Shown piece by piece: positions 58,524 through 63,950 of a stretch of 63,950 nucleotides of DNA (position 1 is the first letter of the stretch; each line of letters begins with the position of its first letter). The stretch comes from Chloroflexota bacterium. GTDB taxonomy: Bacteria; Chloroflexota; Limnocylindria; Limnocylindrales; CSP1-4. The notes beneath the pieces were generated by a model. That model worked only from the letters and a program-made list of their open reading frames with translations, was not told the DNA's origin and searched no databases. The translations under genes were made by a program, and so were the position numbers. The stretch is taken from contig JANYJG010000039.1 of assembly GCA_025358515.1 (NCBI GenBank), positions 1 through 63,950 on the forward strand. The letters are read 5' to 3'.

Positions 58524-59219
58524 CTAGAAGAGCCTGTCGTCCGACTTGGGCGGCTCGACCAGCCGGTGCCGCAGGGCGAATGCCACCGCCTCGAGCTTCG
58601 AGTGCACGCGAAGCTTGCCCATGATGTTCTGGACGTGCGTGCGCAGCGTGTTCGGCGCGATATACAGGCGTTCGCAGATGTCCGGCGTGGCCAGACCCTC
58701 GGTCAGGGCCTTAAGGACTTCCAATTCGCGGGGCGTAAGAGGTTCGATCTGGCGGCGCTCAGTGCCGCGCTCCTTGGCAGCCGCGACGCGCTGGGCGATG
58801 CCGACAATCACCGACCGCGGTAGCAGCGTCTCGCCCGCATAGGCGGCCCGCACGGCGGTGACAACCTCGTCGATGGCCCGGTCCTTGGTCAGGTAGCCAT
58901 CTGCGCCGGCCTGGATGGACTCCAGGACCGTCTCGTCATCAGTCAAGGCCGTGAGCATGACGACGCGAGCGGCCGGCCAGCGGGCCTTGATCGAGCGCGT
59001 GGCCTCGGCTCCGGTGCCATCGGGCAGGCGGTAGTCCATAAGAACGACGTCCAATCGCTCACGGGACATCGCCTTAGCCTCAGCAACGCTACCAGCAACG
59101 CCCACGACCATGATGTCCGGCTCGCGGCTGAGAATCTGAGACAGTGCTCCCGTTAGGAGCTGGTGGTCGTCGACGAGGAGGACACGGATGGGACGGGTCT
59201 CGCCAGACGATTCGAGCAT
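58524..59219 (-). CDS. NarL/LuxR family response regulator (no adjacent kinase)
   Basis: LVDDH, VLMDY, MLT, YLTKD, LTPRE.EVL, T.RTHV.NI..KL. Confidence 0.94.
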   Translation of the reverse strand: MLESSGETRPIRVLLVDDHQLLTGALSQILSREPDIMVVGVAGSVAEAKAMSRERLDVVLMDYRLPDGTGAEATRSIKARWPAARVVMLTALTDDETVLESIQAGADGYLTKDRAIDEVVTAVRAAYAGETLLPRSVIVGIAQRVAAAKERGTERRQIEPLTPRELEVLKALTEGLATPDICERLYIAPNTLRTHVQNIMGKLRVHSKLEAVAFALRHRLVEPPKSDDRLF

Positions 59220-59396: not shown

Positions 59397-60281
59397 GTGC
59401 GTATATCTATAGTCGGTTTCGGACTGATTGGCGGCTCGATCGCCAGGGCGCTGCGAAGTGTAAGCGGCCCTGGTGCCTGGCAAGTCACAGCCTGGAGCCG
59501 GAACCCCGCTCCGGTGAGGCAGGCCGTCGACGACGGCGTGTTGGACGTCGCGGCAGCCAGGCTGGAAGACGCGGTCGGCGATGCCGACATCATCGTCCTG
59601 GCAGCTCCGCCGCTCATTTGCCTGGATCTGGTGGACAGACTGGGCGCGGACCTGAGCCGCTTCTTGTGCGATGAGGCCACCATCACCGATGTCTCGAGCG
59701 TGAAGGCGAGCATCGTCGATCGGGCCAACAAGGCTCGACTGCATTTCATCGGCGGTCACCCGATGGCCGGCCGGGAGTTGAGCGGCTATGGCGCGTCCCT
59801 TCCGGATCTGTTCGTCGGCCGGCCCTGGGTAACCGTGCCGGGCCAATGCGCCCGTCCGGGCGACGGCGAGCGCATCAACGAACTGGTCTCGGCCTGCGGG
59901 GCCATTCAGATTCCCATGGACGCTGCGGCCCACGATCGGGCTGTGGCAGCGATCAGTCATGTGCCACTGGTGCTGTCCGCGGCGCTGGTGGAGGCCATCG
60001 CGGGCCGGCCCGGCGAACCAGACCGGGGCGATTGGGGGGCGGCCGAGGTGCTGGCGGCAACCGGCTGGGCGGGCATGACTCGGCTTGCCAAAGGGAATCC
60101 GGCGATGAGCGCGGGAATCGCCGCCACTAACACGGCGGCCATAGCCGAGCGACTGCGCGAATTCCGCGATCTTCTAGACGAGTGGTTGGCCGAACTCGAG
60201 CGACCGGACGGCCCCGATCCCGAGCGACTGCGCGAGCGATTCGCGGCCGACAGGGCCCGCCTCGAGAAGTCGGCTCCGTAG
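59397..60281 (+). CDS. tyrA: Prephenate/arogenate dehydrogenase
   Basis: GFGLIGGS, DVSSVK, GGHPMAGRE, HD...AAISHVP, MTRLA. Confidence 0.92.
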   Translation: MRISIVGFGLIGGSIARALRSVSGPGAWQVTAWSRNPAPVRQAVDDGVLDVAAARLEDAVGDADIIVLAAPPLICLDLVDRLGADLSRFLCDEATITDVSSVKASIVDRANKARLHFIGGHPMAGRELSGYGASLPDLFVGRPWVTVPGQCARPGDGERINELVSACGAIQIPMDAAAHDRAVAAISHVPLVLSAALVEAIAGRPGEPDRGDWGAAEVLAATGWAGMTRLAKGNPAMSAGIAATNTAAIAERLREFRDLLDEWLAELERPDGPDPERLRERFAADRARLEKSAP

Positions 60282-60907
60282 TGGCGGAGCTAGCCGGGCC
60301 ATCGGGTGAGTTCGTCTACGCGGTTCCGCGGGACGTCCTGCTGGACGGCATGGCCGTGTGGCGAGGCGTCAAGTCGGACGGGGACGTAGCCGCGATCCTA
60401 AGTCGAATCGACGCGGCCGGAAGTTTTGTGCCACGGGCCGCGGCCGAGGTCGATCGGACGATCAAGCAGATCATCCCGTACCTGGTCCTTCACGATGGGC
60501 AGCGGATCTTCTTGATGAAGCGGACGAAAGCCGGCGGGGATGCCCGACTGCACGATCGCTACAGCATTGGTGTGGGCGGCCACATGAATCCCGGCGATGT
60601 ATCCGTCATCGGTGGCTTGAAACGCGAGTGGCGTGAGGAACTTACCGCGGCTTTCGTACCCGAGTTCTCGTTCCTGGGACTTCTCAATGACGACGAAGTC
60701 GAGGTGGGCGTGCATCACCTTGGCGTGGTATTCATGGCCGATGCGGCAGGGCGTCCGGTCAGCGTTCGTGAAACCCACAAGCTCAGCGGCAGCTTCGAAT
60801 CGGTCCAGGTCGTGCAGTCGGTTCGCGACCGATTGGAGACGTGGAGTCAACTCGTGCTCGACGCTCTCGAGCCGGTCCATTCTGCGACCGAACCTGCGGC
60901 ACGGTAG
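60281..60907 (+). CDS. NUDIX-like phosphoesterase
   Basis: KQIIPY, RL...YSIGVGGH, GLKREWREE, VG.HHLG, LETWS; TAGTG overlap with tyrA. Confidence 0.82.
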   Translation: MAELAGPSGEFVYAVPRDVLLDGMAVWRGVKSDGDVAAILSRIDAAGSFVPRAAAEVDRTIKQIIPYLVLHDGQRIFLMKRTKAGGDARLHDRYSIGVGGHMNPGDVSVIGGLKREWREELTAAFVPEFSFLGLLNDDEVEVGVHHLGVVFMADAAGRPVSVRETHKLSGSFESVQVVQSVRDRLETWSQLVLDALEPVHSATEPAAR

Positions 60908-61034
60908 TCGAGTCTCACGTATGGAAGACCGAGTTGGCCCGCCACAAGAGCGTGGGATGTTCGCGAAAGACACATTCTTGAACAACGATGTTGCATTGGC
61001 GCCGGTCAAGTCCGCGATTGTGCGTGACCGGACG

Positions 61035-61523
61035 ATGGATGCGGAGTTCGCCTCTCGGCTGGAGGGCGAGCTACCGATGGCCTACCGGCTGGCCGGATAC
61101 TTGCTTGCCGACGCGACGGAAGCCCAGGACGCGGTCCAGGAGGCGTCTGTTAGGGCCTGGCGTGGCTGGCCCGGTTTGCGCGAGCGCGATCGATACCACG
61201 CCTGGTTCAGTCAGATCTTGGTCAACGTTTGCCGGACCCGGCTGCGTCGCCGCAGCCGACAGCGAGCTCTCGATATCGACGACATGCAGCTGGTCGGGGC
61301 CGATCCGTTCCGCGCGGCACTCGCTCGGGATACGGTCGGGCGGGCTCTTTCGGTTCTAAGCAACGAGCTTCGAATGGTCGTGGTGCTCCGTTACTGGGGC
61401 GAACTCTCGCTCGCCGAGATCGCCGACCGGCTTCGCATTCCCATCGGCACGGTGAAGTCCAGGCATCATGCCGCCATTTCGGCATTGCGCCGCCGGATAA
61501 CCCCGGCCGAAGGTGGGACCTGA
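61035..61523 (+). CDS. ECF RNA polymerase sigma factor (start could be as early as 60921)
   Basis: Sigma2 (AYRLA...EAQDAVQEA...AWF..I.VN) and sigma4 (LSLAEIA..L.IP.GTVKSR). Confidence 0.93.
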   Translation: MDAEFASRLEGELPMAYRLAGYLLADATEAQDAVQEASVRAWRGWPGLRERDRYHAWFSQILVNVCRTRLRRRSRQRALDIDDMQLVGADPFRAALARDTVGRALSVLSNELRMVVVLRYWGELSLAEIADRLRIPIGTVKSRHHAAISALRRRITPAEGGT

Positions 61524-63112
61524 TGAACGATCCCGAGTCGGACCTCGAGGCCAGGCTCCAGGCCGTCGCGGCTGCGAGCCCCACGCCGCCACTGCCGCCG
61601 GAAACCGCGGCCCTGCCGTGGACCGTCCAGAAGCAGCGACACGGACCGGGAATCCTTCAAGCGCTGTTCGAGCGGCGCTCCTTTGGGGCGGGAATTGGGC
61701 GAGCCGCGGTGTCGGTGGTTCGTCTTGCGGCGACTTTCGCGGTGGTCGGAACCTTGCTGGTGTTTGCGAGTCAGGCCCGGTCTGGGTCTTCCGGAACGGC
61801 CCTCATCCGGCCCGCGACTACTCCTCTGGCCTCGGCCGGCACCGTTGCCGCCCCGGCCGGTCCAGAGGTTCTCGTAGTCCAGACCAGTGGCGTCGTCGAT
61901 CAAGTGATGGCGGACTATGTGACCGAGGCGGTGCACCGGGGGGAATCTGACGGGGCTGCCGCGGTGATCATCCAACTGGACACGCTGGGCGGATCCGAGA
62001 GCGCGATGAGCGAAATTGTCACCGCTCTCGACGCCAAGGTTCCGACGATCGTTTGGGTCGGGCCGGCGGGGGCGAGTGCGGCCAGCGCCGGGACGTTCAT
62101 CACTCTCTCGGCCAACCTCGCCTTCATGGCGCCCAGCACCAACATCGGCGCGGCCTCGCCGGTATCGGCCGGCGGCGGAGACATTGCCGCGGTCTTCGGC
62201 CAGACCGAGGCCGCCAAGGTCATGGAGCACGCCAAGTCCCTGATCCGAGGGATCGCCCAGCAACGCCATCCCGCGTCGGTCGCCTGGGCCGAGAGTACCG
62301 TCGCGCAGGCCCGGTCGTACAGCTGGCAGGAAGCGCTCGATGCCCAGGCCATCAACGGCGTGGCCTCGACTTTGGATGACGTGCTGACCCAGGCGGACGG
62401 CCAGTCGGTCACGACAAAGGCCGGCCAGGTCGTGCTGCACACCAAGGGCGCCACCAAGGTTGCAGTCAGCGAGAACTTGATCCAATCGTTCTTACACACC
62501 CTGGACGACCCGAACATCGCCTTCATTTTGTTGGTGTTGGGCATCCTGTTTGTGCTCCTGGAGTTGTTCCACCCGACGCTGCTCTTCGGGCTCGTCGGGG
62601 CCGTTTCGCTGGTTCTATCGTTCTACGGGTCGGGCAGCCTGCCGCTCAATGTGCTGGGCGTGGTCCTGGTGGCGTTGGGGATCGGGATGCTGACCCTGGA
62701 GACGAGCGTCCCGAGTCACGGCCTGTTGGCGATCGGCGGTCTGGTGGCGTTCGTTGTGGGCGCCGTGGCCTTCTACGGCTCCCCGGGCCCCTACCTGCCC
62801 GCCGTGGTCGTGGCCTGGCCGATCATCGCAACCATGTCCGTGATCGCGGCGGCGTATGCCCTGCTGGTGCTGCGTACGTTGCTGAAGATGCGAAGTCTGG
62901 CGGTTCCGGTGGGCTCGGGCATGGTGGGCACGGAACAGCTTGTCGGTCAGATCGGAGAAGTCCAGTCGGACCTGTTGCCCACAGGGACTGTCTATGTTGC
63001 CCGCGAGTCATGGACGGCGCGGCTCGCCTCCGGTGGCACGGCACCGCGTGGTAGCAGGATCAAGGTGACCGGACAGGAGGGCCTGACACTTATCGTGGAG
63101 AAGGTCGGGTAG
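61523..63112 (+). CDS. nfeD: NfeD-type membrane serine protease with an N-terminal anti-sigma-like extension
   Basis: TGATG coupling to the sigma gene; LDTLGG, AASAG, MAPSTNIGAA, TM bundle, C-terminal OB-fold (G.V...ESWTAR). Confidence 0.88.
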   Translation: MNDPESDLEARLQAVAAASPTPPLPPETAALPWTVQKQRHGPGILQALFERRSFGAGIGRAAVSVVRLAATFAVVGTLLVFASQARSGSSGTALIRPATTPLASAGTVAAPAGPEVLVVQTSGVVDQVMADYVTEAVHRGESDGAAAVIIQLDTLGGSESAMSEIVTALDAKVPTIVWVGPAGASAASAGTFITLSANLAFMAPSTNIGAASPVSAGGGDIAAVFGQTEAAKVMEHAKSLIRGIAQQRHPASVAWAESTVAQARSYSWQEALDAQAINGVASTLDDVLTQADGQSVTTKAGQVVLHTKGATKVAVSENLIQSFLHTLDDPNIAFILLVLGILFVLLELFHPTLLFGLVGAVSLVLSFYGSGSLPLNVLGVVLVALGIGMLTLETSVPSHGLLAIGGLVAFVVGAVAFYGSPGPYLPAVVVAWPIIATMSVIAAAYALLVLRTLLKMRSLAVPVGSGMVGTEQLVGQIGEVQSDLLPTGTVYVARESWTARLASGGTAPRGSRIKVTGQEGLTLIVEKVG

Positions 63113-63154
63113 TCGTTCGCCCGCTTGGGCAGCCGCGGAGTTGGAGGTTTGGGG

Positions 63155-63950
63155 ATGGAAACTGGCAATGTTGTTCTGGCGGTCCTTATCGGGCTGGCCG
63201 TGGTGTTGATCGTCGTCGTCGTCACCTCGATGCGCGTCGTGGCCCAGTGGGAACGAATGGTCGTTAAGCGCTGGGGCCAGACGAACCCCGGCCTGGTTCG
63301 AGAGCCGGGCCTGCGATTCCTGATCCCGATCGTCGACCAAGGCATTAAGGTTGACCTGCGCGAGCAGTTCATCGAGGTTCCGCGCCAGACGGCGATTACC
63401 AAGGACAATGCCCCGCTCAGCGTCGATTTCCTGATCTATTGGAAAATCGCGGACCCGCTCATGAGCATCGTCAACGTGGCCAACTTCGCCGGCGCGCTGC
63501 AGGGCGTGGCCGCGACTTCGCTCCGATCGGTCATTGGCGATATCCCTCTCGACGACGTGCTCTCACAGCGCGAACGGATCAACGAGACGCTCCGGATCAA
63601 GCTCGACGAAGTCACCGAGCGGTGGGGCGGCAAGGTCACCACAGTTGAAATCCGCGAGATCCTGCCCCCGCCGGCCGTTCAAGAGGCGATGAACCGCCAG
63701 CTCTCCGCGGAGCGGACGCGGCGGGCCGTCATCACCGAGTCGGAGGGCACGCGCCAGGCCACGATCAACGTGGCCGAGGGCGATAAGCAATCCAGCATTC
63801 TCCGCGCCGAGGGCGATCGGCAGGCAGCTATCCTGCGCGCTCAAGGCTTTAGCGAAGCGCTTCAGACGATCTTCAAGGCCGCTCATGGCATCGACCAGAA
63901 GACGATGACACTTCAGTACCTTGATGCGCTCAAGACCCTCGGAGCCGGAG
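63155..63950 (+). CDS. SPFH/Band 7 (stomatin/QmcA-like) protein, partial at the window end
   Basis: Manual translation METGNVVLAV...VDLREQ...ITKDN...LRSVIG...WGGKV..VEI...AMNRQ.SAER; missing from the ORF track because it has no stop in the window. Confidence 0.93.
   Translation, partial: METGNVVLAVLIGLAVVLIVVVVTSMRVVAQWERMVVKRWGQTNPGLVREPGLRFLIPIVDQGIKVDLREQFIEVPRQTAITKDNAPLSVDFLIYWKIADPLMSIVNVANFAGALQGVAATSLRSVIGDIPLDDVLSQRERINETLRIKLDEVTERWGGKVTTVEIREILPPPAVQEAMNRQLSAERTRRAVITESEGTRQATINVAEGDKQSSILRAEGDRQAAILRAQGFSEALQTIFKAAHGIDQKTMTLQYLDALKTLGAG

Follow-up and report, generated by a model that had tools for sequence, protein, structure and literature searches.

The DNA analysed here, called the window below, is a stretch of 63,950 nucleotides from a Chloroflexota bacterium (class Limnocylindria, order Limnocylindrales, family CSP1-4 in the GTDB lineage), and it corresponds to one whole contig (JANYJG010000039.1, assembly GCA_025358515.1) of a metagenome-assembled genome that is 93% complete. 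At its right end three genes follow each other on the + strand: a gene for an extracytoplasmic function (ECF) sigma factor, a fusion gene (gene 2) in which an N-terminal tail is joined to an NfeD protein, and a gene of the SPFH/Band 7 type. We consider it likely that the three make up one operon, in which the genes for an ECF sigma factor and for an SPFH protein flank that for an anti-sigma::NfeD1b fusion; the fused product would be an anti-sigma factor that is anchored in the membrane and carries NfeD as its outer domain.

The three genes at the right end of the window

The sigma factor gene extends from 60957 to 61523 and encodes 188 amino acids (aa). The initial annotation had let it begin at 61035, where the Met is not conserved; position 60957, whose Met is invariant in 32/32 sigma orthologues, is the most likely start, and an alternative ATG lies at 60921. 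The product matches Pfam Sigma70_r2 (50.9 bits) and Sigma70_r4 (52.9 bits), and a small protein of this length with regions 2 and 4 only has the layout of an ECF (group IV) sigma-70 factor. It reaches 71.7 bits with the NCBIfam model sigma70-ECF (cut-off 42.9), and with the best NCBIfam subfamily, TIGR02983, it reaches 105 bits, under the cut-off of 141.55. The best match among solved structures is SigW (5wuq, E 1.1e-14), and the score with the SigW family is 76 bits, far under the cut-off of 209. A search of the genome with the sigma factor gave 8 matches at E<=1e-15.

The last base of the sigma stop codon (TGA, 61521-61523) is at the same time the first base of the ATG that opens the fusion gene (61523-61525), giving a one-base overlap; in the other 9 loci examined from the genus of the window the overlap is of four bases, ATGA or GTGA. 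Overlapping stop and start codons, already pointed out in the initial annotation, are therefore found in 10/10 genus loci. These loci come from kin that are not independent, and all counts within the genus document the fixation of one event rather than repeated evidence. The fusion gene is a single open frame of 529 aa (61523-63112), and because third-position GC in this frame is already high at 61523-61612 (0.87, and 0.77 at 61583-61672), its 5' extension is coding. The protein begins with a cytoplasmic tail (aa 1-62, 61523-61708), in which a conserved block at aa 4-38 is the putative sigma-binding segment, and continues with a first transmembrane (TM) helix (about aa 63-86, 61709-61780), a signal anchor in place of a signal peptide; its hydropathy peak covers aa 63-81, and the structural model places a helix at aa 54-87. 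A variable extracytoplasmic linker rich in Pro, Ala, Ser and Gly (about aa 87-115, 61781-61867), which is a candidate cleavage region, connects this helix to the NfeD part.

The NfeD part opens with a ClpP-fold Ser/Lys protease domain of the NfeD1b type (aa 116-296, 61868-62410), which aligns with the protease domain of PH1510 (2deo, 3bpp; E 1e-21) and matches Pfam NfeD1b_N at aa 116-222 (52.5 bits, cut-off 40). An integral membrane domain follows (aa 331-457, 62513-62893; Pfam NfeD_membrane at aa 331-446, 67.4 bits) with five predicted TM helices, modelled at low confidence at aa 330-348, 351-368, 373-393, 399-419 and 428-457. The protein ends with a partner-binding OB-fold domain (aa 468-527, 62924-63112 with the stop codon), matched by the Pfam NfeD C-terminal domain at aa 471-527 (54.9 bits) and by the 'stomatin operon partner protein' 3wwv at aa 468-526 (E 4.7e-7). 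All three NfeD Pfam domains exceed their cut-offs, which corresponds to the long NfeD1b layout, and the TM helices and OB fold that the initial annotation had placed after the protease domain were both recovered. With the N terminus inside, one helix leading out and five leading back, the prediction places the tail and the OB fold, and by the positive-inside rule also the SPFH domain, in the cytoplasm and the protease domain outside, a topology that we regard as moderately secure. The full-length model (mean predicted local distance difference test, pLDDT, 55; predicted template modelling score, pTM, 0.39) was used for secondary structure alone.

A protease domain with the Ser of AASAG and a candidate Lys in AAKV had been proposed from the first inspection, and both residues hold up: S188 (codon 62084-62086) and K232, the Lys of EAAKV (codon 62216-62218), are invariant in 23/23 family members and in 50/50 NfeD cores taken across the class. 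They align with the residues of the Ser/Lys pair of the archaeal enzyme PH1510, which we take to be its catalytic residues; one solved entry among the structural matches has Ala at the Ser position. On the conservation of the pair in 50/50 cores, the NfeD protease is probably active. The fusion gene encodes the sole NfeD of the genome and must therefore still do the normal job of NfeD. Directly before the Lys, a four-residue insertion (aa 228-231, 62204-62215) is present in the fused NfeDs of the genus only and not in the 40 other cores aligned.

The SPFH/Band 7 gene (63125-63950) starts at 63125 (TTG) or at 63155 (ATG), that is 13-43 nucleotides (nt) 3' of the fusion gene, and its 3' end is lost at the contig end, 63950. 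Its product has a hydrophobic segment at residues 16-34 preceding a Pfam Band_7 domain at residues 38-208 (126.8 bits), in agreement with the first assignment of an SPFH gene at this place. An SPFH gene lies downstream of nfeD in 10/10 genus loci and in 18/20 other loci of the family. One genus member (L009, G020:C5) has two SPFH genes after nfeD, 82% and 37% identical to that of the window.

Origin of the fusion by insertion

The gene order prephenate dehydrogenase, conserved gene, nfeD, SPFH gene is shared by 15/20 loci of the family outside the genus and by 5/6 loci of a second family. The 20 other loci of the family have no sigma gene at nfeD, and the unfused NfeDs carry an ordinary signal peptide at the N terminus. 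From the conserved upstream gene to the NfeD core the distance is 87-203 nt in 19 unfused loci (L023, which contains a run of N, was left out of this measurement) and 887-980 nt in 10/10 genus loci. A similar difference was observed inside the protein: between the hydrophobic segment of TM helix 1, or of the signal peptide, and the first protease strand there are 25-32 aa in 14/14 fused loci of two lineages (the second is described below), whereas 34 unfused loci have 2-23 aa there, with 5 as the median; in the 10 genus loci the linker measures 28-32 aa. Since the sister genera have the same neighbourhood, no sigma gene and an NfeD with a signal peptide, the comparison of the loci shows that a block of ~800 nt, comprising a putative ECF-type promoter, the sigma gene, a tail of ~62 aa, a TM helix and a linker of ~30 aa, was inserted in frame, replacing the cleavable signal peptide. 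The same comparison shows that this arrangement is fixed across the genus.

The promoter-like motif of the block, GAACC-N15-GAGTC (60890-60914), is of the ECF type and lies 5' of the sigma gene. Its general form, GAACC-N15-G[AG]GTC, occurs at the same position in 10/10 genus loci and in 0/19 unfused loci in the corresponding intergenic region; in the unfused loci an element like TAnnnT, judged by eye, is placed as -10 element 5' of nfeD. A genome-wide scan for GAACC-N14-16-G[AG]GTC gave 53 matches, with ~53 expected and thus no enrichment, and the search for a regulon by means of the motif was dropped for this reason. Matches to the loose motif were seen directly 5' of another ECF sigma gene and of the gene for a small membrane protein (G000:C128, ~724-760; G000:C28, ~29781). 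A second one in the window (61749-61772) falls inside the DNA coding for TM helix 1, where the protein is not conserved, and is probably due to chance.

The left edge of the insertion is marked by the conserved gene 5' of the sigma gene (60182-60907, + strand). It has no Pfam family at E<=0.01 and contains a stretch resembling a Nudix box, as judged by eye. Further upstream, the C-terminal part of a long open reading frame on the minus strand (58524-59200) resembles, again by eye, a response regulator with receiver and helix-turn-helix domains.

The conserved order of ECF gene, tail::NfeD gene and SPFH gene, whose search the initial annotation had suggested, was found in 10/10 genus loci. No homologue has separate anti-sigma and nfeD genes: at each locus NfeD is either fused or, in the 20 other loci of the family, without a sigma gene. 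Because the homologues are of these two kinds, the fusion is neither a local deletion nor a misassembly. An artefact, namely a wrong start codon, a frameshift or a chimeric assembly near 61780-61870 (the region flagged from the start for possible chimerism), could also be imagined, and indeed in the low-depth public sediment runs X3, X4 and X5 the contigs stop at ~61785-61790, at the start of the variable linker, so that only run X1, possibly the source sample, bridges this point. We read these contig ends as places where the assembly graph of a low-depth run broke at the variable linker, and gave them no weight in either direction. In X1, one contig spans 60800-63379 with 4 differences and no gaps, the open frame is continuous in 10/10 independently assembled genus loci, and the coding composition extends across the junction. 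Moreover, of the 51 species genomes in the genus, 50 have the tail, each time within a long open frame, and the one without it is 64% complete; 118 of the 120 best database relatives, drawn from several sources, match the protein from end to end and have its full length, with 526-544 aa. An artefact is thus extremely improbable. The close database relatives are labelled Candidatus Limnocylindrales or Limnocylindria (Chloroflexota), and in the rest of the family, sampled by 68 genomes from 48 genera, the tail was not found.

A similar arrangement was observed in one genus of another family of the class, in which 6/7 loci have a different ECF sigma gene, whose product is 35-37% identical to the sigma factor of the window. 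In the four loci examined for this feature, the sigma gene and nfeD overlap by GTGA, and NfeD begins with an unrelated tail of ~42 aa, a TM helix and a linker of 25-27 aa; sigma and tail are present in the fifth and sixth loci too. The database contains 36 full-length clusters of this second type, and their nearest relatives, at 68-81% identity, have no tail. When 50 NfeD cores were placed in a maximum-likelihood tree, the fused proteins formed two clades (support 100/100 and 100/99), each nested in a different unfused family; an analogous fusion thus arose a second time, independently, in this other family, apparently from an unrelated sigma/anti-sigma pair. At the level of the class, NfeD was found in 140/151 genomes, and in 11/13 genomes of the second fused genus; these tallies include four genomes flagged as unpublished (G123, G087, G106 and G091), on which none of the other results depends.

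The seventh locus of the second lineage (L089, G082:C42, ~1790-1935, compared with 1351-2023 in L086) carries an in-frame deletion of ~530 nt, by which most of the sigma gene and the tail went together, leaving the TM helix, the linker and NfeD. At its junction, the first ~18 codons of the sigma gene are fused to the region just before TM helix 1 of NfeD. The joint gain on two occasions and the joint loss on one argue that sigma factor and tail work as a unit, and suggest that the NfeD-SPFH complex is functionally linked to ECF envelope-stress signalling.

The tail and its predicted contact with the sigma factor

In an alignment of 23 sequences (A1), the tail consists of an acidic helix followed by a Pro-rich block that ends in ALPW-x-VQ, and the residues L12, A16, P22, L24, P25, L31, P32, W33, V35 and Q36 are invariant among 10 genomes. 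The layout of about 60 cytoplasmic residues and one TM helix, as first read from the sequence, stands in the form of a coding, conserved tail of ~62 aa and a TM helix at ~63-86. The true start does not lie just before the TM helix, the doubt raised with that first reading, given the coding composition of the 5' extension, the invariant residues of the tail and the lack of any conserved internal start in A1. As candidates for an internal start giving an ordinary signal peptide we considered the GTG codons at aa 63 and 65, which are not conserved in A1, and rejected them. A Tat signal was also rejected, by eye: the RR pair before TM helix 1 is present in some A1 members only, and its spacing is unusual.

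To our searches the tail appeared confined to this type of locus. Residues 1-95 have no Pfam family at E<=10 and no relevant NCBIfam family, and thus no match to curated anti-sigma domains such as the zf-HC2/RsrA-like class I, RskA-like or CnrY-like class II types. A profile of the tail, run against 1.84 billion representatives, gave 16 matches at E<=0.001, 11 of which were examined: 9 derive from the sigma-NfeD locus itself, either as fragments or with frameshifts, and the other 2 are spurious repeats, so that among these 11 of 16 there is no standalone tail and nothing outside the sigma-NfeD locus type. Beyond these 11, the match P0070 is a family member of 535 aa that is also among the best database relatives.

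Sigma binding, the absence of which would have spoken against the first proposal, is indeed predicted. Three runs of a complex model of the sigma factor with the tail, in which each chain had its alignment, scored 0.28, 0.77 and 0.78, with a median of 0.77, and the best of 3 controls scored 0.00; the mark set for this score is reached by 116/157 solved complexes and by 2/215 mismatched pairs, counts that are rough when own alignments are used. In the model, tail residues 4-38 touch sigma residues 26-68 and 117-181, in regions 2 and 4: a tail helix (8-16) lies on sigma 142-148 (region 4), and the Pro-rich block (22-36) on sigma 31-64 (region 2). All 10 invariant residues of the tail fall within the modelled interface, an agreement that is not independent, as the model sees the alignment. 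The sigma factor is therefore predicted to be held at the membrane by a tail that clamps its regions 2 and 4, and we infer that the tail inhibits it.

A comparable layout was found among the partners of the paralogous ECF sigma factors (L033-L066), a large family of single-pass proteins with a shared N-terminal tail and varied outer domains. In 29/34 of these paralogous loci the partner gene has a 4-nt overlap. In all 12 partners scanned, an acidic helix stands first, a stretch containing Pro comes next and a single TM helix closes the N-terminal part; in 9 of them, BNR/sortilin, Kelch, PD40, regulator-propeller or AMIN-like domains follow. When the partner tails were compared with the NfeD tail by hhalign, the probability was 79.9% (E 1.4e-5) over 24 columns; the set used (A4) left out L054 and L056-L060, which have a different tail type, L036, L039 and L049, which have no clean coupled start, and L043, a duplicate of L042. 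The second tail type occurs in L054 and L056-L059, and neither type is covered by any Pfam family. Beside the sigma gene of the window there is no other candidate for an anti-sigma factor, the upstream gene being common to relatives without sigma gene. Taken together, the coupling of the genes, the complex model, the context of the paralogue family and the lack of another candidate indicate that the tail is probably an anti-sigma module.

Several points weigh against this interpretation. One run of the complex model reached only 0.28, the pLDDT of the partner is 47-67, so that its own fold is uncertain, and the alignments used for the complex were shallow, unpaired and made of close relatives only. 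The tail matches no known anti-sigma family in Pfam, and the promoter motif is too loose for defining a regulon. No RNA run was found among 20 runs listed. The full-length model is poor, so that the count of five helices, too, is moderately secure like the topology. The same evidence bears on another explanation, in which the tail is not an anti-sigma factor but a lineage-specific signal anchor or regulatory tail acting in targeting, turnover or oligomer control, and the sigma factor merely drives the operon and is controlled otherwise. The missing match to an anti-sigma family agrees with it, as do the fact that the contact of sigma and tail rests on a complex model and the precedent of an ECF sigma factor acting in trans on nfeD-flotillin operons, B. 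subtilis sigma W, described in the portion of PMC8144471 available to us. Yet the predicted sigma interface coincides exactly with the conserved tail block, no rival anti-sigma gene adjoins the sigma gene, sigma and tail were gained together twice and lost together once, and the paralogous sigma factors have the same coupled layout of tail, TM helix and sensor; we therefore regard a tail without anti-sigma function as improbable.

Proposed release of the sigma factor and known systems

If the tail holds the sigma factor, stress would lead to a cut in the linker, for which either the Ser/Lys protease of an adjacent NfeD subunit or a different site-1 protease would be responsible. The products would be an NfeD in its usual mature form and a short stub, still anchored and fit for a site-2 protease; the stub would then be cleared by the site-2 protease (an M50 homologue) and by cytoplasmic proteases, and the freed sigma factor would transcribe its own operon, giving more NfeD, more SPFH protein and fresh anti-sigma factor. 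We put forward release by a linker cut tentatively, as a possible mechanism, and favour it because both fusions gained a linker that ordinary NfeDs lack. M50 homologues are present in the genome, but they are unspecific, as 14/14 control genomes have them. That the linker is cut, and that NfeD is its cutter, we infer, and it speaks against NfeD in this role that the known substrate of the archaeal NfeD homologue is its stomatin partner. More doubtful is the possibility that NfeD is an autoproteolytic anti-sigma factor, in which the state of the SPFH-NfeD assembly (substrate load, membrane perturbation) would decide on the cut of the linker by a neighbouring subunit and so free the sigma factor.

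The main alternative to the linker cut is a switch on the cytoplasmic face without proteolysis: the tail would bind the sigma factor, and assembly or disassembly of SPFH and NfeD would hide or expose the tail, with a partner switch or a sequestration that takes place within the SPFH cage or next to it. Such a switch would suit the predicted placement of tail, OB fold and SPFH domain on one side of the membrane, the binding backed by the complex model and the SPFH gene that comes next in 10/10 genus loci. However, both fusions gained an extracytoplasmic linker of 25-32 aa, which a purely cytoplasmic switch does not need, and we consider this mechanism rather unlikely.

Few membrane gene pairs of prokaryotes are as widespread as those of NfeD and SPFH, and what NfeD senses or does is debated. 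In the hosts of this locus, uncultured Chloroflexota of the Limnocylindria type, NfeD is part of the same polypeptide as a module that is predicted to retain a transcription factor, and sigma-dependent transcription could offer a simple genetic readout of the state of the NfeD-SPFH complex. The autoproteolytic mechanism, if true, would be the first direct signalling output of NfeD-SPFH complexes. The range of known anti-sigma factors would be widened by an enzyme-bearing, multi-pass architecture.

The initial annotation knew of no description of such a fusion, and none was found in the literature on NfeD or SPFH with anti-sigma or extracytoplasmic function sigma factors, judged mainly from abstracts. 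The accessible text of PMC11222466 gives the function of NfeD as unknown and reports that floA-nfeD matters under stress. In the re-classification of ECF sigma factors (Casas-Pastor et al. 2021, PMC7826278), the available main text has no passage on NfeD, SPFH or Chloroflexi, and among 12 Chloroflexi passages of the available supplement none fits the sigma factor of the window. The portion of this work at hand describes for ECF273 (Xanthomonadales) a conserved neighbourhood with SPFH and NfeD-like genes, and in this respect ECF273 is similar to the window, where the ECF sigma gene neighbours the genes for NfeD and SPFH. Unlike the window, ECF273 has a separate RskA-like anti-sigma factor at position +1, and no NfeD fusion is described there.

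In B. subtilis, according to the available part of PMC8144471, the regulon of the envelope-stress sigma factor sigma W takes in the operons yqeZ-floA-yqfB and floT, so that there, too, an ECF sigma factor is tied to nfeD-SPFH genes. Sigma W of Bacillus, unlike the sigma factor of the window, acts in trans, and its RsiW is a separate protein unrelated to NfeD.

With PH1510/PH1511 of Pyrococcus and YqeZ/FloA of B. subtilis the fusion protein shares the order of protease, membrane domain and OB fold, the conserved Ser/Lys pair and the adjoining SPFH gene. In ordinary long NfeDs the N terminus is a cleavable signal peptide, which ~5 aa separate from the protease domain, whereas the fusion has a tail of ~62 aa, an anchor that looks uncleaved and a linker of ~30 aa; moreover, it stands behind a sigma gene and an ECF-type promoter motif, and ordinary NfeDs behind a -10 element of the TAnnnT type.

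Single-pass membrane anti-sigma factors that are released by regulated intramembrane proteolysis are represented by RseA of E. coli (cut by DegS and RseP), by RsiW of B. subtilis (PrsW and RasP) and by RsiV. As in these systems, the fusion gene directly follows an ECF sigma gene, with which it is translationally coupled, the putative sigma-binding segment is N-terminal and cytoplasmic and is linked by a single TM helix to an extracytoplasmic domain, and the genome of the window encodes a homologue of the M50 site-2 protease. Unlike RseA, RsiW and RsiV, the tail has no known anti-sigma domain family and only ~40 conserved residues; a Ser/Lys protease forms the outer domain, and behind it come five more TM helices and an OB fold on the cytoplasmic side. 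Since the fusion protein brings its own enzyme and additional TM helices, cleavage would leave a complete, independently anchored enzyme in the membrane.

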